Positions 844 to 20,621 of a stretch of 64,000 nucleotides of DNA are shown here, piece after piece. The notes under the pieces are model-generated. The model was not told where the DNA came from, did not search any database, and saw nothing but the letters and a program-made list of their open reading frames with translations. The DNA is from Thermomicrobiales bacterium (GTDB taxonomy: Bacteria; Chloroflexota; Chloroflexia; Thermomicrobiales; UBA6265). The translations under genes and the position numbers were made by a program. Each line of letters opens with the position of its first letter. The stretch's first letter is position 1. The stretch is taken from assembly GCA_965218235.1 (NCBI GenBank), contig OZ244595.1:1062561-1126560 (forward strand). Direction: 5' to 3'.

Positions 844-3009
844 CTACTGTGACATCCGACCCGGTACGCGGTTGCGCGGTTGCGGGGATGCGGCACCCTG
901 TAAACCACCGTCAATGCTGGCAGATGATCGGACGACGGTGAACGGCCGTGTCAGCGCCGCGACGATGACGAACCGCCGGACGATCGACATGGGGCGATTG
1001 CGACATCCGCCGGCTAAGAGGATCGTTGGGACCATTCGCCAGTATCGACCTTCGACCGATGTGGATTGGGCAGCGCGGGGCTCGTGCAGAACGATGTGCG
1101 CTCGCAGGCCAGTGGCCATCTCGATTGCCGCAATGCGATCGCCTGTTGACAGATGACGATCGACCGCGCCGAGGGACGGTCCATCCGAACCACGCCACGA
1201 CTCAAGGGTCAGGACCTGTGCATGACGGGTCGTCAGATCGAGCCGGAGTAAATCGGCCTCCCACTCATCACCCTCCGAGACCGTGAGGACGACGACGTCG
1301 CGGTACCCAGTCAACCGTGCGAGTTTGCCGGGTCGGGGCCGTAGGATCTCCAGCCACATCCCTGCCCATCCCGCGATGACGCCAATCTTGACTAACCAAC
1401 GCACCGACGCATACTGCGCCGCCAGCTCCGGGTCGGCCCGGGCGACGCCGTCGTCGATCCGAGCCATCCAGCCGGGAATGTGCCTGAACAACCGCTGTCG
1501 AAGGAATGACCAGTCGATCACTGCCGCGTCGGCCGGTGGGTCCGCGGTCGCGAGCCGGCCCCACCCCCGGCCGCGGGTCAGGTGATGGCCGATCAACCCG
1601 CGGGTGCTCCGGCAGGGGCTGCTGTGATTGAACCGGATGGCAGGCTCGCGAAAGGCCACGTATCCCTGACGAACGAGGGTTTGGTTGACTTTCGTGTCCT
1701 CGGCTGAGCGAACCCCCTCCGGAAAGCCGCCGGTCTGGACCAGCGGCTGCCGGGCGTAGGAGCAGTGGGCGGGCGGTCCGTCGATCCGGGCGGGCCGGTG
1801 GCCGGGTAGGCCGGCATGATGGTCGATGAAGTACGACGCCCAGCCAGCCGGGGTCCGATTGCCGTTGACCGCGACCCCCGTCACCATAGGATAGCCACGC
1901 CGGTGAGCATCGAGCCGCGCCTGGAGGCTGCCCGGCGGGAGTTCGACATGGGAGCCGGGGAAACTGATGTACGTCCCCGAGGCAACCCGCAGACCGGCGT
2001 TGCGGGCTTCTCCCGGCAACGCCCGGCGGGGCAACTCGACCAGTCGGACCCGCGGGAATCGCTGCCGAACGATCGCTGCCGTCCGGTCCGTCCCGCTGGT
2101 CACGACGATCACCTCGAACGGCTCCGACACCACCTGACCGACGATGGAGGCGACGGTCCGCTCGATCGTCCGTTCATCGTTGTAGGAAATCACGACGACC
2201 GACAGTGGCAATTCGGCCTCTGGCGGGAGAACCGGGTCAAGACCGCTGTCAAGCCCGAAGGGAGCGGGAGTCGGACCGGGATCGTGGGCCACGGCTTCGG
2301 CCAGCAGGACCGGTTGTCCCGCTGGCCGCGGTTCCCAGCGTCGCAGCTCCGTGGTGCGAGGACCGGCCAGGAGCCGATCGTAGTCCGCCCGAAAGAATCG
2401 CTCGGGGTCCGCCTCGACGTACTTTGCGAACCGCTCAAGTCGCCGGGCGTCCGTCATTCCGCCGAGATGCTGGATGCGCAGTGTCGTGCGGACCCATAGC
2501 GAGCGGGGCAGATCGGTCGGCACGGGAACGAAGTGCAGGCGCTGGTCGGTGAACCGCTGGCCCCGCTCCCAGGCGAATAGCCGGTAGACCCATTGATCGT
2601 CCGGCAGAAACCACCCGTCCCTCTCCCGCATCGGAACGTGCCGGAAGCCGTAGGCGCAACCCGGTAACGCGTCCGTCCCGAGGAACTGGCGCAGGGCGGC
2701 GGCGTCGGCGGCGTCCATGCGTTCGTCTGCGTCCAGCGACAGGATCCAGTCGGGTTCGTACTCCGCGGAGGCCGTAAGGAGCCGGTTCCGGTTGACAGCA
2801 TCGTCCCAACCAGCGTATGACGTCCGGATCGGGTTGATCAGGATGTCCCGGACGAGCGGTTCCCGCTCGAGCAACCGGCGAGTGTCGTCGGTGCTGCCAT
2901 CGTCCAGTGCGACGATTCCGTCGCAGAGTGGTCGTAGGCAATCGAACAGGCCGGGCAGGTCCCGCGCAGCGTTTCGTACCGGCAGAAGAACGATGAGTCG
3001 TTGCGACAT
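844..3009 (-). CDS. Two-domain family-2 glycosyltransferase (722 aa from the internal ATG)
   Basis: The ORF track gives 844..3228. I prefer the start MSQRLIVLLPVRNAARD at 3009. Two GT-A modules are present. The first is VLLPVRNAA...ALDDGSTDDT...LSLDADE. The second is LSVVVISYNDERTIERTVASI...GEARNAGL...YISF. Confidence 0.8.
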   Translation of the reverse strand: MSQRLIVLLPVRNAARDLPGLFDCLRPLCDGIVALDDGSTDDTRRLLEREPLVRDILINPIRTSYAGWDDAVNRNRLLTASAEYEPDWILSLDADERMDAADAAALRQFLGTDALPGCAYGFRHVPMRERDGWFLPDDQWVYRLFAWERGQRFTDQRLHFVPVPTDLPRSLWVRTTLRIQHLGGMTDARRLERFAKYVEADPERFFRADYDRLLAGPRTTELRRWEPRPAGQPVLLAEAVAHDPGPTPAPFGLDSGLDPVLPPEAELPLSVVVISYNDERTIERTVASIVGQVVSEPFEVIVVTSGTDRTAAIVRQRFPRVRLVELPRRALPGEARNAGLRVASGTYISFPGSHVELPPGSLQARLDAHRRGYPMVTGVAVNGNRTPAGWASYFIDHHAGLPGHRPARIDGPPAHCSYARQPLVQTGGFPEGVRSAEDTKVNQTLVRQGYVAFREPAIRFNHSSPCRSTRGLIGHHLTRGRGWGRLATADPPADAAVIDWSFLRQRLFRHIPGWMARIDDGVARADPELAAQYASVRWLVKIGVIAGWAGMWLEILRPRPGKLARLTGYRDVVVLTVSEGDEWEADLLRLDLTTRHAQVLTLESWRGSDGPSLGAVDRHLSTGDRIAAIEMATGLRAHIVLHEPRAAQSTSVEGRYWRMVPTILLAGGCRNRPMSIVRRFVIVAALTRPFTVVRSSASIDGGLQGAASPQPRNRVPGRMSQ

Positions 3010-3320
3010 GAACCTGCTCCGGTGGGACGTCTGGGTCGCTCTGGAGCATAAACGACCGACCGATCCTGGGAACGGATGGCGCGGAGGGAGCGACCCTTGG
3101 TCCCTTCCGTCCGGCCTGGCCTGGCGTGGCGGTAACCATCGGTCAGCCGACCAGCAGATCGGATGAGACGTTTGTGCTACGGAAGAAGGCGCCAACACGA
3201 TAGTACACTCTGGACCATGCGCCCTCATCGGGGCGCCCGTACCAATCTCCGCGACCCGACCCGGACGATCCCCGCGGCCACCTGGCGTCCGCCAGTTTCC
3301 CTATCAGGAGACAGCCTCCC

Positions 3321-4943
3321 TTGAACCTCGATCTCAGAACGCTGCTGCGGTTCGCGCGACGCTGGTGGTTCCTACTGCTGCTCGGTCCCCTCGTCGCTGG
3401 CGGAGCGGCCTACTGGACGTCCTCCCAGCAGGAGGAGATGTACGCGGCGACCGCGACGCTGTTCATCTCCCAGACCGATCCCAGCCAGCAGGACCTGAGC
3501 GGTCTTCAGGCGGGTGAACGGCTCGGGTCGACTTACCAGCAATTGGTGAACACCGATCCAGTTCTCCAGGCGGTGATCGACCGGCTTCAGCTTCCAGTGA
3601 TGATCGGCGATCTGCGCGGCAGTGTCAGCGCCTCGGTCGTGACGGGAACACAGCTTCTCCACGTGTCGGTCTCCGACTCGGACCCGCGCCGCGCCGCTCA
3701 GGTCGCCGACGCAGTGGCGGAGGAGTTCGCCCGCGTGCTGAGCGAGCGATCCACCCAGCTCTCGAGTGCCTCGCGCGAAGCGCTGCAATCGCAACTGGAC
3801 AGGGCCGAGGGGCAGATCACGGACGTCACGACGCAGATTGATCAGCTCGAGGCATCCGGGACGGTCGGGTCGGCGGAGGTGCAAACGCAGCTCAGTTCGC
3901 TCCGCGTCACGCTCAGCCAGGCTCAGGTCGTTTACGGCGACCTGCTCAGCCAGCAGCAGCAGATGGACCTGGCTGAGGCCGCCCTCCAGAGCCGGGTCAC
4001 GGTTTGGGAACACGCCCGACTCCCAGGTACCCCGTACGCACCGCGCACGTCGCTGTACACGCTGCTGGCTTTGATCGCGGGGATGATCGTCGCGGCCGCA
4101 AGCGTCTTCCTGCTGGAATACCTCGACAACACGGTCAAGAGCGAACAGGACATCGTTGATCTGACTGGCGTCCCGATGCTCGCCGAAGTTCGCGTCGTGC
4201 CCAAGCTGCTTCCGGGCCGGGACCAACTCTATGTTTTGAACCGTCCGGCATCGGCCGCGTCGGAAGCGATTCGGCTGCTTCGGACCAACCTCGAGTTCGC
4301 TTCGGCATCGAAGGAGGTCGCGGTCATGCTGGTCTCCAGTGCGGGGCCATCCGAGGGCAAGAGCACGGTGACGGCGAACCTGGCGGCGGCGATGGCAGGG
4401 ACGGGACTGGTCACGGTCGTGATCGATGCCGATCTGCGGCGACCCACTCAGCATCGCATCTTCGACTTGTCCAACGAGCGTGGACTGACGTCCCTGCTGA
4501 CGCATCCGGCGCAACCGTGGAGCTGGGCCGCGGCCGAAGTGATCCCTGGTCGCCTGTTCGTCGTTCCGAGCGGCCCACAGCCCCCGAATCCGTCCGACCT
4601 GCTGAGTACCGAGCGGATGCGTCGCCTGCTCGAGGATCTTCGGTCGACCGTCGACCTCGTCATCATCGACTCACCGCCCCTACTTGCGGCGGCGGACGCT
4701 CTTGTCCTCGCCCCCCATTCCGACGGCGTCGTGCTGCTCTGCCGCGCCGGTCAGACGCGTCGTGAGGCCTTGCAGCGGGCGGTCGGCGCCCTCCGCAACG
4801 GTTCGATTCGGGTGATCGGCACGGTCCTCAACGGGCAGTCCAGTTCGGGTGAGAGCGGCTACTACTATGCCGGCTACTACTCGAGTGAGACCACGGACCA
4901 GCGGCCCAGCCTTCCGGCTCGTGAACCCGCAACGCAGCCGTAG
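3321..4943 (+). CDS. Polysaccharide co-polymerase / BY-kinase fusion (Wzc/CpsCD-like tyrosine autokinase)
   Basis: N-terminal TM segment plus a long coiled periplasmic region and a second TM segment. Walker A is SSAGPSEGKST, Walker A' is VVIDADLRRP and Walker B is LVIIDSPP. C-terminal Tyr cluster GYYYAGYYS. TTG start. Confidence 0.85.
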   Translation: MNLDLRTLLRFARRWWFLLLLGPLVAGGAAYWTSSQQEEMYAATATLFISQTDPSQQDLSGLQAGERLGSTYQQLVNTDPVLQAVIDRLQLPVMIGDLRGSVSASVVTGTQLLHVSVSDSDPRRAAQVADAVAEEFARVLSERSTQLSSASREALQSQLDRAEGQITDVTTQIDQLEASGTVGSAEVQTQLSSLRVTLSQAQVVYGDLLSQQQQMDLAEAALQSRVTVWEHARLPGTPYAPRTSLYTLLALIAGMIVAAASVFLLEYLDNTVKSEQDIVDLTGVPMLAEVRVVPKLLPGRDQLYVLNRPASAASEAIRLLRTNLEFASASKEVAVMLVSSAGPSEGKSTVTANLAAAMAGTGLVTVVIDADLRRPTQHRIFDLSNERGLTSLLTHPAQPWSWAAAEVIPGRLFVVPSGPQPPNPSDLLSTERMRRLLEDLRSTVDLVIIDSPPLLAAADALVLAPHSDGVVLLCRAGQTRREALQRAVGALRNGSIRVIGTVLNGQSSSGESGYYYAGYYSSETTDQRPSLPAREPATQP

Positions 4944-5070: not shown

Positions 5071-5880
5071 TTATCGGGCGCCCCGCCCAATCGGCCACCA
5101 GCGACGCGGGCGTCGCTGGAAATCACCTTCACCGGCTTGCTCGCCCAGGGCAATGTCGTCGCCGGAGAGGATCGCCACCGGGTTGCGGTTCACGATCCGG
5201 TCCCGCCGTTCTCGCCCGACGATCTGCTCCAGGCGACGCAGCGCGTCCGGGACGGCCGCCAGCCGGTGATCGTCCCCGTGGGCGTCCGAGGCAACCAGAG
5301 TGATCGCGCCGGCCTCGAGTAGCCGCGTGGATACCTTCTGGATCCGACGGGACGATCCAGTCAGGCTCTGCAGCGTCAATTGCAGCTGGACCCCGCGACG
5401 GGCCAGGGCGATCGCGAGGTCGGGCTGCTCCTGCACCGCGCGGTAGCGTTCCGGGTGGGCGAGGATCGGGCGGTAGCCGGCCGCCTGAAGGGCGAACATC
5501 GTCGCCTCGGTGTAGGTCGGCCAGCCGACGAACGGCAGTTCGACCAGGATTGCCCGAGTCCCGGCGATCGTCGAAGGTTCCCCCGCCTCGAGCCGGCGGG
5601 GCAGATCGGGCGACAGGAAGACCTCGTAGCCACCGATCACGCTGATTCCATATGGCCCGGCCTCATGCCGCACCTCAGCCAATCGGGTCTCCACAGCCAA
5701 CCGATAGTCCCCGGCGAGCTGGACATGCAGGTGCGGCGTGGCGACGATGGTCCGGTATCCCAGCTCAACCGATCTGGCTAGCAGGAGCCGTGTGCCGGCC
5801 ATGGATGAAGCACCGTCGTCAACCCCTGGGAGCAGATGATTGTGCAGGTCTATCACAGGTTTACTCCGATGCTCACCCAC
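5071..5880 (-). CDS. CpsB/YwqE-type PHP-family protein-tyrosine phosphatase
   Basis: N-terminal motif IDLHNHLLPGVDDG, then ATPH and a later HPER/DAHG His cluster. Convergent with the BY-kinase gene. Confidence 0.8.
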   Translation of the reverse strand: MGEHRSKPVIDLHNHLLPGVDDGASSMAGTRLLLARSVELGYRTIVATPHLHVQLAGDYRLAVETRLAEVRHEAGPYGISVIGGYEVFLSPDLPRRLEAGEPSTIAGTRAILVELPFVGWPTYTEATMFALQAAGYRPILAHPERYRAVQEQPDLAIALARRGVQLQLTLQSLTGSSRRIQKVSTRLLEAGAITLVASDAHGDDHRLAAVPDALRRLEQIVGRERRDRIVNRNPVAILSGDDIALGEQAGEGDFQRRPRRWWPIGRGAR

Positions 5881-6304: not shown

Positions 6305-7198
6305 ATGTCCACGCGCTGGACGTCCAGGCATCTTCGCCTCAGTCTCGGGCGCATCCCAATGGAGGTCGCGATGTCGGTTGGTGCCCTCGAGGTCGATGAT
6401 CAGATCGCATCCCGTGTGGAGCGTGTGACTGGCTCGGATCTCTACATCGTTCCGGGCGGCCGGGTCGTGTCCGGCGACATCCATGAGGTCCCGCCTCGTT
6501 CCTGGCAGGGTGCGGTCGTCGCGATTCCCGTCGGTCCAGACACGGTCCGGGTCGAGGCGACGTTGCCGATTGGGGGCGTCATGGACCCCGGTGTCGCCTA
6601 TCACCTGATCAAGCGATCGCTCGACATCGTGGTGGCTCTCCTCGCCATCGTCCTGCTCCTCCCGTTGATCTTGATGATCGCCATAGCTATCCGGGTCAAT
6701 AGCCCTGGACCGATCCTGTTTCGTCACCGCCGTGTAGGGCGGGACGGAGTTCCCTTCTCGTGCCTGAAGTTTCGAACGATGGTGGCGGACGCCGATACGC
6801 GACTCAAGACCGATGCAACGCTTCAGGCGGAATTGATGCTCAAGTGGAAGTTGAATCGTGATCCTCGCGTGACGTCAGTGGGTCGAGTCCTCCGCAAGAC
6901 GAGCGTCGACGAACTTCCCCAACTCCTGAATGTTCTCAAAGGACAGATGAGCCTTATTGGTCCTCGGCCGGTGCCTCGCGTTGAGTTCGATGCGAATTAT
7001 CATCGACATGGCCATCTGATCTTCAGCGTGCGACCGGGGATTACCGGCCTCTGGCAGGTGTCGGGAAGATCGAGTCTCACCTACGAGGAGCGAATCGCGC
7101 TGGACCTCGATTATGTCCGAAGCCGCTGCTTCTGGATGGAACTTCGGATTCTCGTGATGACCATTCCCGCGGTTCTCCTGAGGCGGGGAGCAGTCTGA
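6305..7198 (+). CDS. Bacterial sugar transferase (polyprenyl-phosphate glycosyl-1-phosphate transferase, priming enzyme)
   Basis: [21 protein letters not shown] helix. Motifs [42 protein letters not shown] and [14 protein letters not shown]. The true start may be downstream at MEVAMSVG. Confidence 0.85.

Positions 7199-8546: not shown

Positions 8547-8550
<4 letters not shown>
7198..8550 (+). CDS. GT4-family glycosyltransferase, WcaI-like
   Basis: [39 protein letters not shown]-terminus is typical of WcaI-type GT4. Its start overlaps the upstream stop (ATGA). Confidence 0.8.
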
Positions 8551-10591
<2,041 letters not shown>

Positions 10592-10682
10592 GACCATCGA
10601 GGCTTGGATGGACGTCGACTGGGGCGACGGGACACACCGTTGAAGACGAGGGTTCTTGCGTTCGACGCTGGGGGTGCCGGTC

Positions 10683-11348
10683 ATGCAGGTATTGACGAAA
10701 GTTCTGGGGTCCGGCGATCACCGCAAGTCACGGTTCCATACCAGACGCGGCCAATTGCTGCCGATTCACGCCTGGCCACAGCTGATCTCATCTGCGCGCC
10801 AGAGGGTCTCCCGTCACCAACCGACTACGCCATGGCTAGCGTCATCCGCAGTCGCATTCCTGGATGAGTCGATTCAGGCAACGTGGAATGTCTTTGAGTT
10901 CGGTTCCGGTGCGTCGACAGCCTGGTATGCTCAACGGGCCGGAACAGTCGAGAGTGTCGAGAACAACCCGGAGTGGCACCGCCAAGTGAGCGAGCAGCTT
11001 GCCCATGCTGGGGTCGAGAATTGCACGCTGACTTGGCTGGATTCGTCTCGGGATTTCCCGAGTTATCTCGAGCAATACAGCGATGACTCGTTCGATCTCG
11101 TCGTCGTCGACGGCTACGAGGCTCGATCCGGGCATCGAATAGAGTGCCTGAAGGTCGCAAAATCTAAGACAAAGCCGGGAGGGTTAATTGTGCTCGACGA
11201 TTCCGACCGGCTCGAGTACCGCGCCGCTGATGACATTTTGATGGGGTGGACGGTTAGGCGCTTCATCTCAGTGAAACCGTTCCCTCTGGCTTCAGTTGAG
11301 ACAAGTGTCTTCATTCGGCCACTCGAGCCGACGGAGTCTACCGAATGA
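10683..11348 (+). CDS. Class I SAM-dependent methyltransferase
   Basis: VFEFGSGASTAWYA (motif I) and an acidic loop VESVENN. GGLIVLDD. First gene of the lower-GC cassette. The track ORF begins at 10656 (TTG); I prefer the ATG at 10683. Confidence 0.6.
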   Translation: MQVLTKVLGSGDHRKSRFHTRRGQLLPIHAWPQLISSARQRVSRHQPTTPWLASSAVAFLDESIQATWNVFEFGSGASTAWYAQRAGTVESVENNPEWHRQVSEQLAHAGVENCTLTWLDSSRDFPSYLEQYSDDSFDLVVVDGYEARSGHRIECLKVAKSKTKPGGLIVLDDSDRLEYRAADDILMGWTVRRFISVKPFPLASVETSVFIRPLEPTESTE

Positions 11349-11434
11349 GCTCAAGTGGCCTTTTGGAGCATAGGAGTCCGTGGCACCGGCAAATGTATCG
11401 TGCTACCCCGATGGTGCGTCCGATGTCCAGTTCG

Positions 11435-11620
11435 CTCGCTGGAGCGTTCGCCGGACAGAGTGCATTACTCGTAGGGGATAACGTCTGGGCCCCTGCCAAA
11501 GCCGATGGCCACCCCCGCGCTGGCTCCGATACCTCCCGCGCCAGGCAGGAGTTCGGCTTAACAGCCAGCACGAGCTTCGAGGATGGACTACGTGGAACGA
11601 TCGATTGGTACGAGGAGTGC
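11435..11620 (+). pseudogene. Relic of the 3' end of a second, diverged fcl gene
   Basis: Translation ...[45 protein letters not shown] aligns with the fcl C-terminus [46 protein letters not shown]. Shared nucleotide blocks are GATACCTCCCGCGC, GAGTTCGGCTT, ACGAGCTTCGAGGATGGACT and GATTGGTACGA. No upstream Rossmann part is present. Confidence 0.65.
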
Positions 11621-11666
11621 CTCGATGAGAGTTCGATCCGGATGCAGGACTCACTGGACAAACGTC

Positions 11667-12272
11667 ATGGTTGATACATCGCCTCTTAGACAGCAGCTCT
11701 CGTATTTACGAGAGGATTGGAAACAGAACAGCTCACTCGTCGTGCGCACAGCACTCGTCAACTATCGGCTGGGTAGGGGCGTTTCTCTATCCTCATTGCC
11801 AGCTCCGGCGAAGAGGATTGTACGACTTATCGGGGCGATTGTTGACGCGCTGATTGTGATACCAATGGGCTGCGGCAAGATATTCTCGACCTCCGAGATC
11901 GGCCCAGGGTTCATCATGGCTCACCGAATGACTGGTTCTGTCATCCACCCGCACGCTCACATCGGGAAGGCCGCCAAGATTTTCCATCAAGTGACCATCG
12001 GCAACGCCGGGAGCAAGAACGGAGGCGCCCGCGTGCCAATAATCGGCGACGGCGTCACGATTTATCCGGGAGCCATTCTGGTGGGAAAAATCACGATTGG
12101 CGACAATGTCGTGATTGGTCCGAACGCGCTGGTCAACCAGGACGTGCCGTCTGGCAGCAGGGTGGTGGCACCGAGGGCCACCGTACTCGCTTCCATCATT
12201 GATAGCCGTGCGGGCGAACTCAAGTATGAACAAGCCTGGGAGGTAGTGGCACGGATACCGCCCGACGATTGA
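11667..12272 (+). CDS. Hexapeptide-repeat O-acetyltransferase (serine acetyltransferase/EpsC-like)
   Basis: Left-handed beta-helix repeats IGKAAKIFHQVTIGN..., PIIGDGVTIYPGAILVGKITIGDNVVIGPNALV. The start is trimmed to the ATG at 11667 because the upstream part of the track ORF overlaps the fcl relic. Confidence 0.7.
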   Translation: MVDTSPLRQQLSYLREDWKQNSSLVVRTALVNYRLGRGVSLSSLPAPAKRIVRLIGAIVDALIVIPMGCGKIFSTSEIGPGFIMAHRMTGSVIHPHAHIGKAAKIFHQVTIGNAGSKNGGARVPIIGDGVTIYPGAILVGKITIGDNVVIGPNALVNQDVPSGSRVVAPRATVLASIIDSRAGELKYEQAWEVVARIPPDD

Positions 12273-12385
12273 CTGATAGTGCATACCCCGTGCCCCTCAG
12301 TCCGAGCGTCTGATGCTGTTCTGGCTCGCGAGACCACGGTAGAGAGATCACATCGGAACTGGAGAGCTAGCTAAGCAAAAGGGAG

Positions 12386-13072
12386 ATGCGTGAAATGACC
12401 AATGTTGAAGATTACCTCCGACTTCAATACGCATCTGGGGTTTCGGAATACACGTGGGGGGACCGTGCGAAGAATATTGCGACCTTACTGCTCCGTCCCG
12501 TCGAGCGAAGAAAGGCGGCTCGGTTGGTGGCGAAGGGTGACCGACCTTTACGGCTTCATCTCGGCTGCGGCAATACATACAAGGCCGGTTGGCTGAATAT
12601 CGATCTCGCACGTCCAGGGCGCACGCTAGACCTGAAGTGGGATTTACGCGCTGGATTGCCTTTTTCAAACCAAAGCGTTGAGTCGATTTTCTCAGAACAC
12701 TTATTTGAGCATATTCCCCTTCCCAGTGTCATGATCTTGTTGAAGGAGTGTCGTCGCGTTCTTGCGCCTGACGGTGTAATCCGGATCGGCGTCCCGGATC
12801 TCGAACGCTATGTTCGAGCCTATCTCGGCAATGATCCCATCATCGACGAAGTCAGGCCGGGACGGCCTACGAGAGCCATCGCGATAAGCGAGATCTTCTA
12901 CTTTCACAATCATCGCGCAGCGTACGACGCAGAGACCTTGTGCTTATTGTTAACCGAGTCGGGTTTCAGTAGCGCTGGTCAAGCAAGCTTTGGCCGGAGC
13001 TCAATCAGTCCAGCTCCAGACTCGCCCAACAGGCAACGGGAAACGTTGTACGTGGAGGCGATCGCGTCATGA
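12386..13072 (+). CDS. Class I SAM-dependent methyltransferase (Methyltransf_11/23-like)
   Basis: LRLHLGCGNTYKAGWLNID, SVESIFSEHLFEHI and ECRRVLAPDGVIRIGVPD. An alternative in-frame ATG at 12395 sits behind GGGAGA. Confidence 0.75.
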   Translation: MREMTNVEDYLRLQYASGVSEYTWGDRAKNIATLLLRPVERRKAARLVAKGDRPLRLHLGCGNTYKAGWLNIDLARPGRTLDLKWDLRAGLPFSNQSVESIFSEHLFEHIPLPSVMILLKECRRVLAPDGVIRIGVPDLERYVRAYLGNDPIIDEVRPGRPTRAIAISEIFYFHNHRAAYDAETLCLLLTESGFSSAGQASFGRSSISPAPDSPNRQRETLYVEAIAS

Positions 13073-13109
13073 TTCTTCTTAGTGTGAACAAATCGTCGGA
13101 TCCGATAAC

Positions 13110-15902
13110 GTGAGAGTGAATCACAACCTCCGACCTATCGGGTCATGGCGCGATCAAATTCTTCGAGCGATGCCAATCGCTCGGACGATGCTTGGCTCGC
13201 TCGCCGCCGCGTTTATAGCGCAGGGAGCGTTACTCGTCAGTGGCATCCTCGCGGCGCGACTTCTCGGTCCAGAGAACCGGGGGCATCTCGCACTGCTCAC
13301 GTTGATCCCGGTCGTTATCTGTCAATTGGGAATGCTGGGGGTTGAAAAGGCAGTTTCATATCATATAGCCCGTAATGAGAAAGCCATCGCATCGATTGTC
13401 GCAACCGCAAGACAATTGGGAGTTATCCAGTCAATACTTTGCAGTGTTATCAACGGTGTCGTTTTATGGTCGCTGATGGGCGGCGATGCGAATGAGGTGC
13501 GGTGGAGCGCCGCGATAACGATGATGGTGCCTGTTACCATCTTCATTCGAAACTACGTTTTAGCCATCCTGCAGGGAATGCGTCTCTTCCGCGCCTACAA
13601 CTTTCAGCGAAACGTTCAACCGTTTCTGTACGCTGCGGGGTTGCTGCTCCTTTGGTCGCTCCATGAACCGTCCCTTCTGGTCGCCACTGGCATATGGACC
13701 CTAACGAGTATCGTGTCAGCGACGATTGGTATCATCTCGGTAGCCAGAGCCCTACCTCGTGATGCTAGGAGCGAAGTGCCTACACCGTCGGCCGGTGAAC
13801 TTATGCGGTTTGGTGCCAAAGGGTTCCTGGGTTCTGCCTCTCCGCTTGAGACTTTTCGCCTCGACCAAGCCGCTGTCGGACTTTTTCTCTCTCCAGCCAT
13901 GCTGGGAATTTATGTTGCGTCGCTTGCGTTCACGAACTTGCCTCGGTTCGTGTCACAAAGTGTTGGAATGATCGCATTTCCACATATCGCTGGACAGCCC
14001 AACGACAAGTTGGCGGCTCGCTCGATGTGGCGGTTCTTCTGGCTATCATTGGCTATGTCCATCATGATCGCAACTCCCCTAATAGTAGCAGCGCCAGTTT
14101 TAGTGCCATTGGCATTCGGCGAGGACTTCCGTGATGCCATTGCGCCGATGCAGATTCTCCTTATTGGCTCGGTTATCTTCGGAGCCAGGCGGACGCTTGG
14201 AGACGGAATGCGAGGCCGGGGCATGCCTCTCGCTACTACATGGGCGGAAATTGCCTCCTGGGTTTGCCTTGTACCGGCACTAGTCATTTTTGTTCAGTGG
14301 AGCGAACTCAAGGGCATCGCAGTCGCCATTGGTGCGTCAGGGGCGGTGGGACTGGCGGCCCTTGTCTTCTTGCAGCGGGCCAAAGAACTGAAGCCAACAG
14401 GAGTACCGCTGGAGAAGGAGTCATTATCGTCCCGGTTGACCGACGTACGATTCGTGCGTGCTCTGTTTAGCGTACATCGGAAGGCGCGACCGGAAATACA
14501 ACCATCTCGTAGGAACTCCTTTGGACTATCCATCAAGGTCGTGCGCATTGCGACCGTCTTGCTGCTCTTCCTTATTACTGTGCTTACGGTGGGAGCGGCA
14601 ATACCGTTACTTGGAACTGGACTCGCTATTCTTCTCGTCGTCGCGGTGATTGGCGCAGCAGCAACAGGCATTGTATGCGTTCGACTCGGCTATCCTGGTC
14701 TCATTATGATGTTATTCGCAGCGTCATTTGTTCTATTGGCGATGAATGGAGTCCGGGTCAACTCCAGTATCGCGATGAGCGATGTGCCGCTTTTGCTTGC
14801 TGTGCTTCTATCACTGCCCCTCCTAATGCAAAGTCGTCGGCAAGCAGTGCCGCGAGAACTCAAACGATTCATGATCGGTGTAACGTTACTTATTATTGGG
14901 AGTTTTATCGCCACAGCATTCTCTTCTGCAGTTACCGAAAGCTTAGTGCGGCTGATTAAGATGTCGACTTCGGTAGCAGTCGTTCCCCTCGCCATTGTGC
15001 TGCTTGCTCCTTCGACACGCTTTCTACGTCTCTTAAGTCTTCTATGGATAGCATCCGTGTCCCTGAGCGTCTTCATCGGCGTCGTTCAAGGGCCACCTCA
15101 TAACAGCAGTCGTATTATCGGCCTTGCGACGCATCAAAACGTTCTAGCATTTACTTGTATTTTGGCACTTGGACCCGCTCTAGCGTTCATGGTGGCCGGT
15201 AATCGTATCGAACGATTCATTGCCTTGGGTGGTACTGTTAGCGTCCTTATGGGCGTCTACTTTAGCGGGTCTCGGGCGGGACTGGTCGGCACGTTGGTGG
15301 TGGTTCTCATTTTCGCTATCATCACTCGCAACCGTGTACTGACGCTATTTCTCACTACAGCAACTCTACTCGGTGTGGCCGTCGGAGTGTTTGGCGTTCA
15401 AGTTCCATTCGAGCAAGGCACTTCGATCGAGAGACTGCTGCATTCAAGGAGTTCGGATGTGACGGTAGCGGCTAGTGACGAGGGACGCCAGGAGCGATTT
15501 GCGCAAGGGATTGCCAGTATTGAACAGCGACCCTTCGTCGGTATAGGTCTACAAGAAGCACGTGCCGCGCATAACGTCTACCTTCAAGTGCTATCGGCGT
15601 CGGGAGTAATTGGTTTCGTCGGATTCATTGTCGCCATCTGGGCGGCTCTTGCTCCGCTTAGGGATCGAACATTGAGGGCAAGAGCAAGAGTGGGCGAAAA
15701 GGCGCCGTTAATCATAGTCGGCTTTGGTGCTGGATACGCAGGTTTTCTGGTAGGAGAAGTGTTCAACAACAGCCTGTGGGAGCGGTTCATGTGGGCGTAT
15801 CCAATCGTTGGGCTGCTGCTCTATCTACGTTACAAGGAGGGTTCGTCCGAGATCAGCACGCTAGGCCTGGCTGACGCCAAGATTGAATGGAGAAGCCGAT
15901 GA
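13110..15902 (+). CDS. Fused Wzx-like flippase (N-terminal ~440 aa) and Wzy/O-antigen-ligase-family polymerase (C-terminal ~450 aa)
   Basis: Single 930-aa polytopic ORF. The N-terminal half looks like an oligosaccharide flippase of the MOP superfamily. The C-terminal half carries the Wzy_C-type loop YFSGSRAGLVG ... RPFVGIGLQEARAAHNVYLQVLSASGVIG. GTG start. Confidence 0.7.
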   Translation: MRVNHNLRPIGSWRDQILRAMPIARTMLGSLAAAFIAQGALLVSGILAARLLGPENRGHLALLTLIPVVICQLGMLGVEKAVSYHIARNEKAIASIVATARQLGVIQSILCSVINGVVLWSLMGGDANEVRWSAAITMMVPVTIFIRNYVLAILQGMRLFRAYNFQRNVQPFLYAAGLLLLWSLHEPSLLVATGIWTLTSIVSATIGIISVARALPRDARSEVPTPSAGELMRFGAKGFLGSASPLETFRLDQAAVGLFLSPAMLGIYVASLAFTNLPRFVSQSVGMIAFPHIAGQPNDKLAARSMWRFFWLSLAMSIMIATPLIVAAPVLVPLAFGEDFRDAIAPMQILLIGSVIFGARRTLGDGMRGRGMPLATTWAEIASWVCLVPALVIFVQWSELKGIAVAIGASGAVGLAALVFLQRAKELKPTGVPLEKESLSSRLTDVRFVRALFSVHRKARPEIQPSRRNSFGLSIKVVRIATVLLLFLITVLTVGAAIPLLGTGLAILLVVAVIGAAATGIVCVRLGYPGLIMMLFAASFVLLAMNGVRVNSSIAMSDVPLLLAVLLSLPLLMQSRRQAVPRELKRFMIGVTLLIIGSFIATAFSSAVTESLVRLIKMSTSVAVVPLAIVLLAPSTRFLRLLSLLWIASVSLSVFIGVVQGPPHNSSRIIGLATHQNVLAFTCILALGPALAFMVAGNRIERFIALGGTVSVLMGVYFSGSRAGLVGTLVVVLIFAIITRNRVLTLFLTTATLLGVAVGVFGVQVPFEQGTSIERLLHSRSSDVTVAASDEGRQERFAQGIASIEQRPFVGIGLQEARAAHNVYLQVLSASGVIGFVGFIVAIWAALAPLRDRTLRARARVGEKAPLIIVGFGAGYAGFLVGEVFNNSLWERFMWAYPIVGLLLYLRYKEGSSEISTLGLADAKIEWRSR

Positions 15903-17113
15903 AGCCACTACCGCGTGTTGTCTACTGGAACAATATCCCTAGTCCGTATGTGGTCGGGAGATTCAATGCCGTGGCGCGGCGTGGGAACATTGACCTCCAA
16001 GCGTGGTTCAACTCGCGTACGAATCCTGATCGAAGTTGGGATGTAATTGAAAGCCACTGGGAGTTTCCCGCGCGATACATTCCGTCCGTCCAGATCGCTG
16101 GGCAGTCGCTGCACTTGCCCTTCGCCGAGCTGCGTCAGTCGCAACCAGATCTGGTAATCTGCCTGTATAACCCGGTGTCGTTTGCGCTAGGAAGCGTCGG
16201 AATGGCCGCAAGCGGAGTTCGCTTCGCCTATCGTGTGCTCCCTACATACGGCAGCTGGGTGCGTCGCTCGACCGCCAAGGAGCTTTCGAAGAAGTTGCTT
16301 TTCCGCTTGGCCGATGCAGCGAAAGTACCTGGCCCGGAGGGCGCTGCTGTTGCTCTGCGTTACGGAGTTCCCGAAGAGCGGATTTTTGCCGTTCGCCAGT
16401 CCGTCGACGTGGATCACTTTGCGACGGCATCTGACGTGCCGGTCGTCGTACGTCGTAAAGAACGAGATCGCAGAGCCCTTCATGGATGCGTCTTCATCTA
16501 TGTTGGAAGACTCTGGCGGGGTAAAGGCCTCGATTACCTGTTTGACGCATTTGACCAAGTCCGCCAACACAATCCGGAAACTTCGCTGCTGATTGTAGGA
16601 GACGGCATTGACGAGGGACGCTATCGGACGCAGGCGAGGCAAAATCCGAATATCCACTTCGAGGGATTTGTGCAGCCAGCAGATATGCCGTCGATGTACG
16701 CGCTTGCGGATGTCTGTGTGTTCCCTACGCTTGGAGATCCTCACGGATTAGTGACGGAAGAGGCAATGGCTGCTGGGCTTCCTGTGATCGTTACGGAAGC
16801 GGCGGGTGACATTGATCGACGGTTACCGGACGGTGAGGCAGGTTTCATCGTTCCGCCGAGGTCAGCAGACGCCCTCGCTGCCCGAATGCTGGATCTCGCG
16901 AATGACGCTTCTATACGCCACCGATTTGCCCGATGCGGTCAAACACTGGTCTCATCACGTACACATGATGAATATGCGCTTGATCTTGAGGTTATGGTTG
17001 ATCGCGTTTTGTCTCTCCCCCGACGACGGCAACCCAGTCCAATAAACTCCCTGGCCTTCCGCTCCTTGCATACAGGCTTACGGCGGGATCCGGCACCTAT
17101 GGTGAGTCGATGA
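15887..17113 (+). CDS. GT4-family glycosyltransferase
   Basis: C-terminal GT-B motif FPTLGDPHGLVTEEAMAAGLPVIVTEAAG. An alternative start at 15899 gives an ATGA overlap with the upstream stop. Confidence 0.8.
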   Translation: MEKPMKPLPRVVYWNNIPSPYVVGRFNAVARRGNIDLQAWFNSRTNPDRSWDVIESHWEFPARYIPSVQIAGQSLHLPFAELRQSQPDLVICLYNPVSFALGSVGMAASGVRFAYRVLPTYGSWVRRSTAKELSKKLLFRLADAAKVPGPEGAAVALRYGVPEERIFAVRQSVDVDHFATASDVPVVVRRKERDRRALHGCVFIYVGRLWRGKGLDYLFDAFDQVRQHNPETSLLIVGDGIDEGRYRTQARQNPNIHFEGFVQPADMPSMYALADVCVFPTLGDPHGLVTEEAMAAGLPVIVTEAAGDIDRRLPDGEAGFIVPPRSADALAARMLDLANDASIRHRFARCGQTLVSSRTHDEYALDLEVMVDRVLSLPRRRQPSPINSLAFRSLHTGLRRDPAPMVSR

Positions 17114-18378
17114 GCGCGAAGGTGTTTTCGTCTGCGGGTCGCGATCAACCACCCGAGGTGAGGATGTCGTGGAAGCACGAATCGGAACAAGCAGGGTTGC
17201 GCGTACTGCAAGTGGTGCCTTCAGTTGGGATAAGCGAGGGAGGACTCGCTGTAGTCGTCGTTGAGCTTAGTGACGCCCTCCAACGCGCCGGAATGGCGGT
17301 GCAGATAGTTACGACGAACTCCGCCATACCCGGGCGTTCGGGGCAACCCCGCCGAAGCGTTGCAGAAACGGACTTGCCTTATGGCGCCGAAAACCTTGAC
17401 ATCCGTTACTTCCGAGTGCGGAGACCCTATCGCTTTCTGTTCGCCCCCGATATGGCGCGCGCGCTGAACACTTCGATCAGTTCCTTCGATCTTGTGCACA
17501 TCCATGGAATATGGAGCTTCTGCGCGCGTGCAAGTTGGAGAGCAGCCAGGCGCGCCGGCGTACCGATCGTCGTCTCTACACATGGGATGCTCGATCCATT
17601 CTTACTTGGCCGAGGAAGGGCGCAGAAGTTCATTGCACTAAACGAGTGGGTTCGACCGATGTTGCAAGGCGCCGCAGCCATTCATTGTACTTCGGAGCTC
17701 GAACACGACCAGATCTCCTCGTTTGCTCCTAACACCCAGCGCGCCGTGATTCCGAATGGTTTTCATCTCGACAGACTTGCCGTAGCGGCCGACTACGGCT
17801 CGTTTCGGCGCGAAATGGGAATCGGGGAGTCCTCGGCCATAGTGCTCAATCACGGTCGGCTCTCATATAAAAAGGGTTTGGACGTTCTTTTACGCGCATT
17901 CGCGAGGGTTTGTGACCAAGTCCAAGATTGTCGCTTGGTTCTTGTAGGTCCAGATGATGAGGGGATTCGAGCCGAACTTGAGGCACTGGCGAGCGATTTA
18001 GGGATCGGAAATGACGTTATATTCACGGGCGAGCTTTCCGGCGCAAAGCTGGCTAACGCGATTGCCGCTGCGGACGTGTGGGTACTCACTTCACACGCGG
18101 AAAACTTCGGAATGGCGGTCGTCGAGGCGATGTCCGCCGGTAAACCAACGGTGATTTCGAGTGCCGTCAATATAGCTCAGGATGCTGAGCAAGCGGGCGC
18201 TACTCTGAAAGTTGATGTCGATGCGAATGCTGCAGCATCGGCCATCGTCGAGTTGCTCAACGATCAAGAATTGAGCCGTGCCATTGGCCGCAGAGCGCGC
18301 CGGTTCGTCGAGCGATTCGATTGGGGAAAGGTTTCTGATCAATACATCTCGCTTTATCGGGAAGTAAGTGCCCGATGA
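17110..18378 (+). CDS. GT4-family glycosyltransferase
   Basis: LRVLQVVPSVGISEGG N-terminus. SHAENFGMAVVEAMSAGKPTVISS. An alternative start at 17164 (MSWKH) sits behind GAGGTGAGG. Confidence 0.8.
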   Translation: MSAKVFSSAGRDQPPEVRMSWKHESEQAGLRVLQVVPSVGISEGGLAVVVVELSDALQRAGMAVQIVTTNSAIPGRSGQPRRSVAETDLPYGAENLDIRYFRVRRPYRFLFAPDMARALNTSISSFDLVHIHGIWSFCARASWRAARRAGVPIVVSTHGMLDPFLLGRGRAQKFIALNEWVRPMLQGAAAIHCTSELEHDQISSFAPNTQRAVIPNGFHLDRLAVAADYGSFRREMGIGESSAIVLNHGRLSYKKGLDVLLRAFARVCDQVQDCRLVLVGPDDEGIRAELEALASDLGIGNDVIFTGELSGAKLANAIAAADVWVLTSHAENFGMAVVEAMSAGKPTVISSAVNIAQDAEQAGATLKVDVDANAAASAIVELLNDQELSRAIGRRARRFVERFDWGKVSDQYISLYREVSAR

Positions 18379-18406
18379 TGTCCGGCGCCGATAGTGCGCC
18401 GGACAT
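18378..18406. terminator. Perfect 11-bp stem hairpin right after the GT4 stop (possible terminator or attenuator, no U-tract)
   Basis: ATGTCCGGCGC-cgatagt-GCGCCGGACAT. Confidence 0.35.
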
Positions 18407-18532
18407 AGCAACCGAAGGAGTAGAAGGGTGTAGCCGAGAAGAATCCCATTTCATACTCGTGGCTCAACTGGCATTCAGAAACGGCTACTCCTAGCTCACC
18501 CGATTCGTAAGTACCCCAAGGAGACCTACAAC

Positions 18533-19642
18533 ATGGACCTTAACGGAAAGAACGTTGTTCTTGTATCAAGCTGGTCACAAAACATCGGCAACGCTTTCTT
18601 CAGTGTGTCGGGACGATGGATCATGGAACAGGCGGCCCCTGGCGCACGTGTCACATGGTTTCAAGACCAGCCCGGATATCGCACGTTTCATAACCAAACT
18701 AGGGGAAATCCTCAAAACCATGCGAGTCTGATCGCATCCCTCGATGTTGATTACCTCGTACTTCAGGGCCCGATGCTGACCTCCACCTTCCGCGCTATTT
18801 GGGAACCTTCGTTCCGTGCGCTGCGGGAGCGCGGCACCAAGATCGTGCTCCTTAGTGCCGGACTTTTCCGATACACCTCTGAGGAGATCGCTTCCGTGCG
18901 CGAATTCTTGTCCGAGTATCCGCCGGCCATCTTGGCGACTCGCGACTCAGTGACCTATTCTCACTTCCACGACCTGTGCGAAATATCCTACGACGGTATT
19001 GAGAGCGCGTTCTGCATTCCAGATGCTTATCAACCGCCCAAGATTGACTATCCTTCGTTTGCGGCGGTTTGCTTTGACCGCTATCCGGAGCCAGAGATTG
19101 TTATCGGCGGTCAGCCCTCACCATCCGCGCCAAATGGACGTAGCGGCAGCTTCGAATTCGAGGACGCGACCTGGAACTGGACGTTTCCACGGATCCCGTA
19201 CTTGCTCGCGAAGAAGGGACAAGGCGTTGCCTATCTCGGGGCTATGGCAGACCGAAGAAAGTCAATGCCTAACGCGTTGAATGGATTGGCAATCTTGCGA
19301 CCCGAGCACCGCACGAACCCTTTCATTGGTTGGAAAGTGTATCGCCGTCCCGGCGCAGTGGCCACGGATGAGCCGTATACCTATCTAGCCACGTACGCCA
19401 ATGCGGAGTTGACTCTAACTGATCGCGTCCACTCGGGCGTAGTTGCATTGGCGTACGGAACGCCGGCGATGCTCTTTGGAGCGACCCCGCGGGATGCACT
19501 CTTCGAGCGCATGGGAATCGCTGACATTCGGCGTCACCCGGTTACGCTTCCTGAAGAGCAGCGTGTGGCTGAGCGAGAAAAGCTGGTCGATTTCCTTCGA
19601 AGCGGACTTGAACGGCTCGAATCCCGGGGCCAAAGAAGCTAA
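18533..19642 (+). CDS. Polysaccharide pyruvyl transferase family protein (tentative)
   Basis: N-terminal NIGNAFF, mid RDSVTY and C-terminal LTDRVHSGVVALAYGTPAMLF resemble the PS_pyruv_trans pattern. RBS AAGGAGA lies upstream. Confidence 0.55.
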   Translation: MDLNGKNVVLVSSWSQNIGNAFFSVSGRWIMEQAAPGARVTWFQDQPGYRTFHNQTRGNPQNHASLIASLDVDYLVLQGPMLTSTFRAIWEPSFRALRERGTKIVLLSAGLFRYTSEEIASVREFLSEYPPAILATRDSVTYSHFHDLCEISYDGIESAFCIPDAYQPPKIDYPSFAAVCFDRYPEPEIVIGGQPSPSAPNGRSGSFEFEDATWNWTFPRIPYLLAKKGQGVAYLGAMADRRKSMPNALNGLAILRPEHRTNPFIGWKVYRRPGAVATDEPYTYLATYANAELTLTDRVHSGVVALAYGTPAMLFGATPRDALFERMGIADIRRHPVTLPEEQRVAEREKLVDFLRSGLERLESRGQRS

Positions 19643-19723
19643 GCCCGCCGTTCGACGCTGCGTTCAGGGTGCCGCTCGACAGCCAGTCCATTGGCATCCT
19701 AAAGTAGGGAAAGAGGTGCACTG

Positions 19724-20323
19724 TTGGGTCGTATCCAATTATCGCTGACATCCCAGCGCGGTTACCAGGCAGGGCGGCCGTTCTGGTTCCGAAGCCTCTG
19801 GCTCGTGGTCGAGGCGGTCACCCTCCTCAACCCTGTTTTCGTCCCGTACGGGCTCAAGGCCCGCATCCTCCGCCGGTTCGGCGCGACCATCGGGCGGAAC
19901 GTCATCATCAAACCGTCGATCCATATCAAGTACCCGTGGCACCTCGCGGTCGGCGACGATGTCTGGCTCGGCGAGCGGATCTGGATCGACAACTTCGTCC
20001 CGGTCACCATCGGCGACGATGCCTGCATCTCCCAGGGTGCGTACCTCTGCACGGGCAACCACGACTGGGCCGACCCTGGGATGGGTCTGGTCGTCCGACC
20101 AATCGCGGTCGAGCGGGGAGCCTGGGTCGGCGCGTTCGCCCGCGTCGGACCGGGCGTGACGGTTGGCGAGGAGGCGATCGTCACCCTGGGGTCGGTCCTG
20201 CTCAGGGATGCCGCGCCGCGTGGCGTCTACCGCGGCAATCCGGCCGAGTGGGTCCGGGAGCGTACGATCCGGGACCGGCCCGGGCCCGGCGGCGGTGGCG
20301 ACGCTGGACCGGCGCCGGAATGA
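19724..20323 (+). CDS. WcaF-like hexapeptide acetyltransferase
   Basis: RFGATIGRNVIIKPSIHIKYPWHLAVGDDVWLGERIWIDNFVPVTIGDDACISQGAYLCTGNHDW. TTG start. GC returns to the high level here. Confidence 0.8.
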   Translation: MGRIQLSLTSQRGYQAGRPFWFRSLWLVVEAVTLLNPVFVPYGLKARILRRFGATIGRNVIIKPSIHIKYPWHLAVGDDVWLGERIWIDNFVPVTIGDDACISQGAYLCTGNHDWADPGMGLVVRPIAVERGAWVGAFARVGPGVTVGEEAIVTLGSVLLRDAAPRGVYRGNPAEWVRERTIRDRPGPGGGGDAGPAPE

Positions 20324-20327
20324 TCCG

Positions 20328-20621
20328 GTGAGGTGGTGGCGCATCGGGCTGGGGATCGTCCTCGCCGGCTGGTTCGTCGGCGTCCTGCTCCTCGGGCTGG
20401 TGCTCAACACCTTCCGGATCGACGAGGGGCCGACGGTGATCGTGGTCGACGCCGCGCGGGGCTGGGGGCTCCACCGGATGGACCTCGTCATGATCGCGGC
20501 CGCCGTCCTTCCGGTCCTCGTCACCGCGCTGGTCGCGACCCTGATGCTCCTCGCATCGTCTGGTTCCCCTGCGCCCCGGCCTGACCGACGGCATCGCGCC
20601 GGCAACCGGCGAGGTGGCTGA
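20328..20621 (+). CDS. Small two-TM membrane protein (hypothetical)
   Basis: A GTG lies 5 nt after the WcaF-like stop. Two hydrophobic helices: IGLGIVLAGWFVGVLLLGLVL and LVMIAAAVLPVLVTALVATLMLL. This is a trimmed version of track ORF 20163..20621. Confidence 0.35.
   Translation: MRWWRIGLGIVLAGWFVGVLLLGLVLNTFRIDEGPTVIVVDAARGWGLHRMDLVMIAAAVLPVLVTALVATLMLLASSGSPAPRPDRRHRAGNRRGG

Follow-up and report, generated by a model that had tools for sequence, protein, structure and literature searches.

The exopolysaccharide locus of a high-GC soil bacterium of the Thermomicrobiales raises the question of whether one polypeptide can both flip and polymerize a repeat unit. The window, the whole stretch of 64,000 nucleotides that was analyzed, carries a wzx::wzy fusion gene (13110..15902, +) of 930 codons plus stop, the longest open reading frame from the GTG at 13110. 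A single uninterrupted frame had been noted initially, and these 930 codons are indeed open from the GTG start to the stop. The ATG codons at 13170 (M21) and 13188 (M27) are plausible true starts; many homologues start near residue 27. In the junction region, stop codons occur in the other two frames and none in the coding frame. Scanning the window with Rfam and for tRNA genes gave no match and hence no taxonomic marker. The gene product is probably a membrane protein of 26 helices that combines two functions of a Wzx/Wzy-dependent pathway to an exopolysaccharide or capsule, and for which a mechanism and an evolutionary route are proposed.

The Wzx-type MOP/PST flippase domain (13110..14387, +) comprises residues 1-426, based on Pfam, AlphaFold and Foldseek. 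Pfam Polysacc_synt_3 (PF13440) matches residues 49-344 (E 4e-11, 43.1 bits versus a cut-off of 23). Twelve transmembrane (TM) helices are predicted, both termini are predicted to be cytoplasmic, and the pLDDT of this half in the AlphaFold model is mostly >90. In Foldseek, WzxE (9g9o) ranks first (E 4e-7, TM-score on target 0.74), ahead of MurJ and MATE. A Foldseek search with the whole model yielded MOP matches only, because the N-terminal half dominates. Identity to relatives ranges from 40 to 66%. The MOP-family flippase seen by the initial annotation in the first ~440 residues is thereby upheld by Pfam and the WzxE fold. Judged by sequence and model, the N-terminal half is a Wzx-type flippase, with a predicted function in the translocation of Und-PP-oligosaccharides.

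The C-terminal half is a Wzy_C-family (GT-C-type) domain (14535..15899, +; residues 476-930) with ~14 TM helices, a putative repeat-unit polymerase. Pfam Wzy_C (PF04932) matches residues 710-840 (E 5.9e-12, 46 bits versus a cut-off of 31.7), so that both families, Polysacc_synt_3 and Wzy_C, score above their curated thresholds. Modeled separately, this half reached a pLDDT of 76.7 and a pTM of 0.76. The sole significant fold match in the PDB is WaaL (7tpg_B; E 6e-6, TM 0.54/0.60). Sequence searches of the PDB, with a profile and with the C-terminal half alone, gave no usable match; fold comparison alone worked. Both halves are confirmed by fold, the first through WzxE and the second through WaaL. 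Neither the Pfam domain Wzy_C nor the WaaL fold tells a polymerase from a ligase or an O-oligosaccharyltransferase. A large extracytoplasmic loop (15396..15584, +; residues 763-825) was delimited by conservation, predicted topology and the Wzy_C match. It carries the family-conserved residues R775, R793, P808, G811, G813, H821 and N822 and is presumed to be the catalytic or Und-PP-binding loop. The two motifs first assigned to a Wzy_C/ligase loop are both present, SGSRAG at residues 719-724 and RPFVGIGL...AHNVYLQVL at residues 807-828. The predicted topology places all conserved polar residues of the C-terminal half in outer loops or TM helices, and none in cytoplasmic loops.

The inter-domain linker (14388..14534, +; residues 427-475) is Lys/Arg-rich, disordered and predicted to be cytoplasmic. 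It is about 50 residues long, not ~40 hydrophilic residues as originally estimated, and contains 11 K+R versus 5 D+E. The pLDDT falls below 50 over residues 433-478, and the full-length AlphaFold model has a pTM of only 0.59. The predicted topology of the whole protein is 12+14 TM helices with 42 K+R inside versus 11 outside, the sidedness of the loops following the positive-inside rule. In an alignment of 43 fusions, the segment corresponding to residues 420-482 (linker and flanks) varies from 19 to 63 aa without conservation, with means of 6.7 K+R versus 1.8 D+E.

The fusion gene is located in a complete Wzx/Wzy-type exopolysaccharide locus. A GT2 glycosyltransferase of 794 aa (844..3228, -), with 57% identity to its homologue in locus L001, forms the conserved edge. 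It is followed by a polysaccharide co-polymerase (PCP) with a BY-kinase-type P-loop domain (Wzz + GNVR + ParA/AAA_31; 3321..4943, +), a CpsB/CapC-type PHP tyrosine phosphatase (5071..5880, -) and an initiating phosphoglycosyl transferase (Bac_transf; 6305..7198, +). A GT4 glycosyltransferase (7198-8550, +), a GDP-mannose 4,6-dehydratase (8547-9617, +) and an NAD-dependent epimerase/reductase (ORF 9452-10591, +) are encoded next. Tailoring of the repeat unit is assigned to a methyltransferase (10656-11348, +), a hexapeptide acyltransferase (11583-12272, +) and another methyltransferase (12386-13072, +). The end of the fusion gene is overlapped by a second GT4 glycosyltransferase gene (15887-17113, +). 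A third (17110-18378, +) and a polysaccharide pyruvyl transferase (18533-19642, +) follow, bringing the glycosyltransferases of the locus to three GT4 and the GT2. No second polymerase or flippase was found within the window. The fusion is the sole polytopic ORF within the locus; the other polytopic ORF of the window (26238-28193, -) lies outside and has no Pfam match. The proteins of the flanking genes resemble those of Chloroflexota MAGs. No LPS core genes were seen in the locus.

The same architecture recurs in ~45 further clusters at 90% identity, and fused genes are present in 19 of 71 species-representative genomes. Among the top 150 representatives at the 50% identity level, 47 are at least 800 aa long. 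Wzy_C was detected in 40 and Polysacc_synt in 38 of the 43 aligned homologues. The hosts are dozens of uncultured Actinomycetota and Chloroflexota, and the sequences originate from many independent assemblies, Illumina as well as long-read. With ~45 independent clusters sharing the architecture, it is very unlikely to be explained by chance or by an error in local sequencing. A single-assembly artefact was rejected as a general explanation in view of these clusters and the 19 fused species-representative genomes. The reversed domain order occurs in two proteins (P0079 and P0122), and a different polymerase family, O-ag_pol_Wzy (PF14296), in P0002 and P0048. A phosphoglycosyl transferase is encoded in 12 of the 19 fused loci. 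The two functions had been described as normally residing in separate genes, and this holds: relatives usually have separate adjacent genes, and ~35 of 71 loci are unfused. There, wzx is directly followed by a polytopic gene, often overlapping. In the unfused relatives tested with Pfam, this neighbor has a Wzy_C domain, a weak O-ag_pol_Wzy match or an undetectable family. The exact protein of the window gave no match in a look-up, its junction 35-mer was not found as an exact match in metagenome contigs, and a protein-pattern scan for the junction and the Wzy half revealed no further copy. The open-access full-text papers that were searched contained no account of a naturally fused Wzx-Wzy protein.

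Two sister loci illustrate how the halves have been combined. Locus L072, 80% identical to the window locus at the DNA level, has this polymerase in a gene of its own (72% amino acid identity). The module junction (14297..14390, +) begins at 14297, within TM12, where DNA homology to L072 sets in. Within the junction, the two loci differ by a 2-nt indel between 14369 and 14370. Residue L427 is encoded by CTG (14388-14390) in the window, whereas L072 has the ATG of the standalone wzy, overlapped by a TGA. A relic of the flippase TM12 persists upstream of wzy in L072, and a different flippase is encoded elsewhere. The standalone polymerase shows the signature of purifying selection (dN/dS of 0.15 for the Wzy core of the window against its L072 orthologue). 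The standalone gene, the TM12 relic and the other flippase demonstrate that the modules are separable; the selection on the standalone enzyme implies that a covalent linkage is not obligatory. At least one lineage can therefore do without the fusion, having kept the polymerase with no flippase attached. In the P0002 locus, the gene frame is the same as in the window and the polymerase module is different. Modular exchange is shown. The flippase half is the conserved partner; the polymerase half either changes, along with the glycosyltransferases downstream, at the TM12/linker boundary or becomes detached again. Comparison of the window with the P0002 locus and L072 reveals a cassette exchange of a serotype-like kind, in which the breakpoint lies within a gene, at the linker between the domains. 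This breakpoint is a natural design rule useful for polysaccharide pathway engineering. The fusion itself probably originated from adjacent, co-oriented and overlapping wzx and wzy genes.

Such an origin leaves room for a fusion that is real and functionally neutral. A small indel or the loss of a stop codon would have joined overlapping wzx and wzy genes, and both domains would work independently. This explanation is possible, if the less likely one. It presupposes an ATGA-type overlap, compatible N-in/C-in topologies, a harmless joining and the rarity of out-of-frame stops in high-GC genomes. It agrees with a linker that is non-conserved, variable in length and evolving neutrally (dN/dS ~1.3 versus L072), with a junction that differs from L072 by just the 2-nt indel and the CTG/ATG exchange, with the persistence of the standalone polymerase and with the unfused state of most relatives. 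The same flippase subfamily has also been joined to soluble GT4, class-I and FkbM methyltransferase domains, which hints at a general proneness to fusion and not at a specific coupling. However, the fused state has been kept over a deep divergence, with N-terminal halves down to ~37% identity in two phyla. It has arisen more than once, as the two domain orders and the two or more polymerase families show, and it survived the replacement of the polymerase module between the P0002 locus and the window.

A C-terminal half acting as a WaaL/PglL-like ligase or O-oligosaccharyltransferase would hand the flipped glycan over from undecaprenyl diphosphate to an acceptor (lipid, protein or wall), and the fusion would be a flippase-ligase. 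The Pfam label of Wzy_C, 'O-antigen ligase', points in this direction, as do WaaL as the sole solved structure matching, the conservation of H821 in the outer loop and a weak match to the O-OTase TfpM among the curated OTase models of NCBIfam (NF058641, E 0.007). The TfpM score of 15.5 bits is, however, far below the cut-off of 600, and the WaaL match identifies a shared fold only, because no atomic Wzy structure was matched in the PDB search. Against a ligase stand the polymerization-regulating PCP/BY-kinase and phosphatase in a locus with no other candidate polymerase. Likewise, a PCP-kinase homologue is encoded at most 10 kb away in 15 of the 19 fused loci, and in 15 of the 19 the fusion is the sole ORF with at least seven TM helices within 10 kb. 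In the nearest flippase relative, the place of Wzy_C is taken by a fused, full-length domain of the O-ag_pol_Wzy polymerase family. A ligase is therefore rated improbable. The C-terminal half is most likely a repeat-unit polymerase, because the fusion is the sole polytopic protein of a complete Wzx/Wzy-type locus. Of the original assignment as a Wzy polymerase, the Wzy_C family membership stands on sequence; the choice of a polymerase over a ligase comes from gene context. An artefact confined to this genome, in which a 2-nt deletion near 14370 would hide two translationally coupled genes, is highly improbable: L072, the closest DNA relative, has two extra nucleotides at the site followed by the TGA overlapping the ATG start, the window retains an out-of-frame TGA (14389-14391), and a second assembly of the sequence was not found by protein, 35-mer and pattern look-ups, but the site has no homopolymer run, the would-be wzy start is CTG, not ATG, and lacks an obvious ribosome-binding site, the upstream piece of L072 is a decayed relic whose frame therefore says little, and the three closest flippase relatives (P0002, P0003 and P0004) are all fused.

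For the bifunctional flippase-polymerase, the following mechanism is proposed. The phosphoglycosyl transferase and the GT4 enzymes of the locus would build an undecaprenyl-diphosphate-linked repeat unit, which may contain a GDP-mannose-derived deoxyhexose and be methylated, acylated and pyruvylated. Once finished, the unit would be flipped across the membrane to its outer face by the 12-TM Wzx domain. The 14-TM Wzy_C domain, held by the flexible and presumably cytoplasmic linker, would then pass the nascent chain to the unit that has just been flipped, by means of the conserved Arg and His in the large outer loop. Chain length may be set by the adjoining PCP/tyrosine-kinase and the phosphatase. 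The tether would impose a 1:1 stoichiometry and place the flippase exit beside the acceptor site of the polymerase. From this arrangement we infer a physical and kinetic coupling of flipping to polymerization. A stricter version, in which an obligate Wzx-Wzy unit passes flipped units laterally into the polymerase, either outside the PCP ring or within an enlarged one, is doubtful. If it were true, the architecture would depart from the model of a single Wzy enclosed in the lumen of a PCP octamer, and a single-chain sample for the first structure of a Wzx-Wzy complex would be at hand.

The recurrent fusion is independent evolutionary evidence for Wzx and Wzy acting side by side, because both domain orders and at least two polymerase families occur. 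It supports a side-by-side action that has long been suspected but is unproven. It also fixes the relative topology of Wzx and Wzy, with a linker predicted to be cytoplasmic, and makes a stable 1:1 construct available to cryo-EM and to flipping and polymerization assays in vitro.

Escherichia coli WzxE, the lipid III flippase (PDB 9G9O/9G95), is similar to the N-terminal half in its Polysacc_synt/Polysacc_synt_3 domain and 12-TM fold (TM-score 0.74), and both are encoded within Wzy-dependent glycan loci. Sequence identity is only 16-18%, and the fusion, unlike WzxE, runs past TM12 via the ~50-aa linker into a second, 14-TM enzyme. The C-terminal half shares the Wzy_C domain, a WaaL-like fold and a large outward loop with conserved Arg and His with the Wzy_C superfamily, which includes Wzy of Pseudomonas aeruginosa and Shigella flexneri, WaaL (PDB 7TPG) and PglL/TfpO-type O-OTases. 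It differs by the covalent joining to a flippase, by ~14 instead of 12 TM helices and by a divergence too great for any sequence match in the PDB.

PCP and BY-kinase form one chain in Proteobacteria (Wzc) and are split into CpsC and CpsD in Firmicutes. They are, like Wzx and Wzy, a pair from the same pathway known both fused and split across lineages. That pair consists of a membrane protein and a soluble kinase, whereas wzx::wzy joins two polytopic enzymes.

MprF is a bifunctional lysyl-phosphatidylglycerol synthase and flippase (PMC4324311, PMC5898192). It likewise combines a flippase for a lipid-linked substrate with an enzyme acting on the same substrate in one polypeptide. Folds and substrates are unrelated, and the MprF enzyme acts in the cytoplasm before flipping, while that of the fusion would act after flipping on the outer face.

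Published structures place one Wzy within the transmembrane lumen of a PCP octamer (PMC13434223). This recent model is constrained by the fusion: the attached 12-TM flippase must either fit into the lumen as well or reach it from outside on a tether of 20-60 residues. In model organisms, Wzx, Wzy and Wzz are separate proteins. For O-antigen assembly, a Wzx-Wzy-Wzz membrane complex has been hypothesized (Marolda et al., 2006, as cited in PMC4863624). According to the latter source, Wzy-Wzz was the only interaction that had been confirmed. The fusion is what a 'Rosetta-stone' prediction expects if Wzx and Wzy adjoin in this complex, with the difference that their association is covalent here.

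The wzx::wzy fusion gene (13110..15902, + strand) is a single uninterrupted ORF of 930 codons, as described in the initial annotation, and the motifs quoted there are present in the translation. The longest form begins with a GTG at 13110. The ATG codons at 13170 and 13188 could equally well be the start, since the N terminus of many homologues aligns with residue ~27. Pfam identified exactly two families in the product, each over its curated cut-off: Polysacc_synt_3 (aa 49-344, 43.1 bits vs. a cut-off of 23) and Wzy_C (aa 710-840, 46 bits vs. 31.7). The sole NCBIfam match, the O-oligosaccharyltransferase TfpM, was far sub-threshold (15.5 bits vs. a cut-off of 600). By the criteria tested, the N half is an ordinary Wzx (MOP/PST) family member and the C half an ordinary Wzy_C one.

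An AlphaFold2 model of the fusion, built on 43 homologues, had a mean pLDDT of 79.7, with values mostly >90 at aa ~20-430 and <50 at aa 433-478. The best match of the N half among solved structures was the E. coli lipid III flippase WzxE (9g9o, E 4e-7, TM-score 0.74 on the target), followed by MurJ and MATE transporters. The C half modelled alone (pLDDT 76.7, pTM 0.76) had one significant structural match, the O-antigen ligase WaaL (7tpg_B, E 6e-6, TM 0.54/0.60). Sequence searches of the PDB, by profile or with the C half alone, detected no entry. Transmembrane segments were taken from the model helices, and sides were assigned with the N terminus inside. This yielded 12 + 14 segments, with 42 Lys and Arg residues in cytoplasmic vs. 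11 in outer segments. This assignment places the linker (aa 427-475; K+R 11, D+E 5) on the cytoplasmic side. The family-conserved polar residues R549, S557, R668, R775, R793, H821 and N822 of the C half are all predicted in outer loops or at loop edges, with the sidedness deduced from the positive-inside rule.

The wzx-wzy fusion is not rare. Among 5.8 billion proteins, a word-indexed search retrieved 59 relatives, about 45 of them with 870-970 aa and the same two-domain architecture. Among the 43 aligned homologues, 40 matched Wzy_C and 38 Polysacc_synt. In an exhaustive profile search of 1.84 billion 50%-identity representatives, 47 of the best 150 listed were at least 800 aa long. In one-genome-per-species contigs, 19 of 71 flippase-relative loci were fused, 17 in Actinomycetota and two in Chloroflexota. 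Where named below phylum or class, the former were mostly Thermoleophilia (Thermoleophilaceae, Gaiellaceae). All genomes with fused loci are metagenome-assembled. An assembly artefact as the general explanation was rejected, as the architecture recurs in about 45 proteins and at 19 species-level loci, from both short- and long-read assemblies. The linker window (aa 420-482, the linker with a few flanking residues) comprises 19-63 residues in the 43 fusions, is unalignable and net positive (mean K+R 6.7 vs. D+E 1.8).

Judged by its genes, the Wzx/Wzy-type polysaccharide locus in the window is complete. It comprises a GT2 glycosyltransferase (844-3228, -), a polysaccharide co-polymerase (PCP) fused to a BY-kinase-type domain (3321-4943), a CpsB-type phosphatase (5071-5880, -), a phosphoglycosyl transferase (PGT, 6305-7198), a GT4 (7198-8550), a GDP-mannose dehydratase (8547-9617), an epimerase/reductase (ORF to 10591), and two methyltransferases with a hexapeptide acyltransferase (10656-13072). 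Two GT4 (15887-18378) and a pyruvyl transferase (18533-19642) are located 3' of the fusion gene. No other polytopic protein is encoded in the locus. Likewise, the fusion was the sole ORF with at least seven TM helices in 15 of the 19 fused loci; a PCP-kinase homologue was located within 10 kb in 15 and a PGT in 12. The GC content of the variable part (10500-20000) is 50-60% vs. 67-73% in the flanks, which suggests lower-GC donors as the source or the exchange partners of this cassette. Flanking genes share 52-76% protein identity with Thermomicrobiales and other Chloroflexota MAGs.

The window encodes just one further polytopic protein, a 651-aa ORF (26238-28193, -) with about 12 hydrophobic segments, a GC3 of 0.91 and no Pfam family match. 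Just past the locus lies a 1112-aa Sortilin/BNR (Asp-box) repeat protein (21608-24946, -). An 810-aa STAND-like regulator (29984-32416, +) combines an AAA/NACHT NTPase, TPR repeats and a LuxR-type helix-turn-helix. Two tandem serine beta-lactamase/penicillin-binding family genes (PF00144, each about 450 aa; 32443-35204, -) and two tandem ~530-aa proteins with NHL/SGL beta-propeller repeats and a C-terminal cupredoxin domain (36982-40196, -) follow. No tRNA gene and no Rfam family at the gathering threshold was found in window 1-64000.

Identity to relatives amounts to 40-66% for the N half and just 22-32% for the C half, and the halves order the relatives differently. In the closest flippase relative, P0002 (65% identity), a full-length O-ag_pol_Wzy domain (PF14296) takes the place of Wzy_C, and the same is true of P0048. 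Homology to P0002 ends at the end of TM12, and its locus has the same gene frame: PGT, GT4, dehydratase, epimerase, acyltransferase, methyltransferase, fusion, GT4. In P0079 and P0122 the order is inverted, with Wzy_C ahead of the flippase. Together with P0109, P0199, P0022 and P0030 they belong to a set that also includes flippase-GT4, flippase-methyltransferase and FkbM-methyltransferase-flippase fusions of this flippase subfamily. Unfused flippase relatives typically have another polytopic gene (~500 aa) next in line, co-oriented and often overlapping the flippase gene. Ten such downstream genes were tested against Pfam: two matched Wzy_C over the cut-off (L012, L057), three gave Wzy_C or O-ag_pol_Wzy matches under it (L006, L045, L040), and the other five matched no family.

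A search with the C half alone retrieved P0206, a standalone Wzy_C protein of 78% identity encoded in the sister locus L072. The DNA of L072 is 78-82% identical to window 6584-10548, 11484-12464 and 14297-20506; the stretch homologous to the variable part has a GC content of about 60-65%. Both methyltransferases are absent from L072, as are flippase codons 1 to ~396, and a different flippase (704 aa) is located at its far end. Of the last flippase helix, ~75 nt of homologous sequence remain (window 14297-14372), followed by a 2-nt indel relative to the window and a TGA overlapping an ATG (ATGA). This out-of-frame relic (L072 9531-9686) lies directly upstream of the standalone wzy (9683-11197), a 504-codon ORF from that ATG with homology to the window linker over its first ~50 residues. 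The equivalent codon in the window is CTG (L427). The publicly annotated gene (10001-11197, 398 aa) is probably a truncated version of this wzy. In the simplest reading, L072 is a deletion derivative; in the opposite direction, a 2-nt deletion in the window's lineage may have fused two coupled genes. Window vs. L072 dN/dS was 0.15 for the Wzy core (399 codons), 0.32 for TM13-14, ~1.3 for the linker (52 codons) and ~0.10-0.12 for neighbouring genes. By these values, purifying selection acts on the polymerase whether fused or free, and the linker is under no constraint. The window, the P0002 locus and L072 are most simply read as serotype-like alleles, in which the flippase module is conserved and the polymerase-plus-glycosyltransferase cassettes attached to it at the TM12/linker boundary are exchangeable.

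The fusion is probably a bifunctional protein. The Wzx half would flip the completed lipid-linked repeat unit, the Wzy_C half would polymerise it on the outer face, and the PCP, kinase and phosphatase would set chain length. The tether would impose a 1:1 stoichiometry and may hold the flippase exit near the polymerase acceptor site. Overlapping co-oriented gene pairs are a single small mutation short of fusion. A selectively neutral fusion, the main rival as reason for the fused state, is conceivable but rather unlikely. A flippase-ligase is improbable, since the PCP-kinase, the PGT and the lack of another polytopic protein in the locus favour a polymerase for the C half. The initial observation of a fusion is borne out, and domains, folds and locus context support the flippase and polymerase proposed initially. 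An indel artefact in the window's own genome is very improbable.

Full-text searches of open-access literature found no description of a natural Wzx-Wzy fusion, and a 2025 Wzy review applied 'fused' and 'fusion' only to PhoA/LacZ reporter constructs (PMC12004945). The architecture is already visible in databases, in part under the JGI label 'export membrane protein/O-antigen ligase'. With its function predicted, the fusion represents a useful recurrent natural experiment, not a new mechanism. It bears on the Wzx-Wzy-Wzz complex, which is commonly proposed, while only Wzy-Wzz had been confirmed (PMC4863624).
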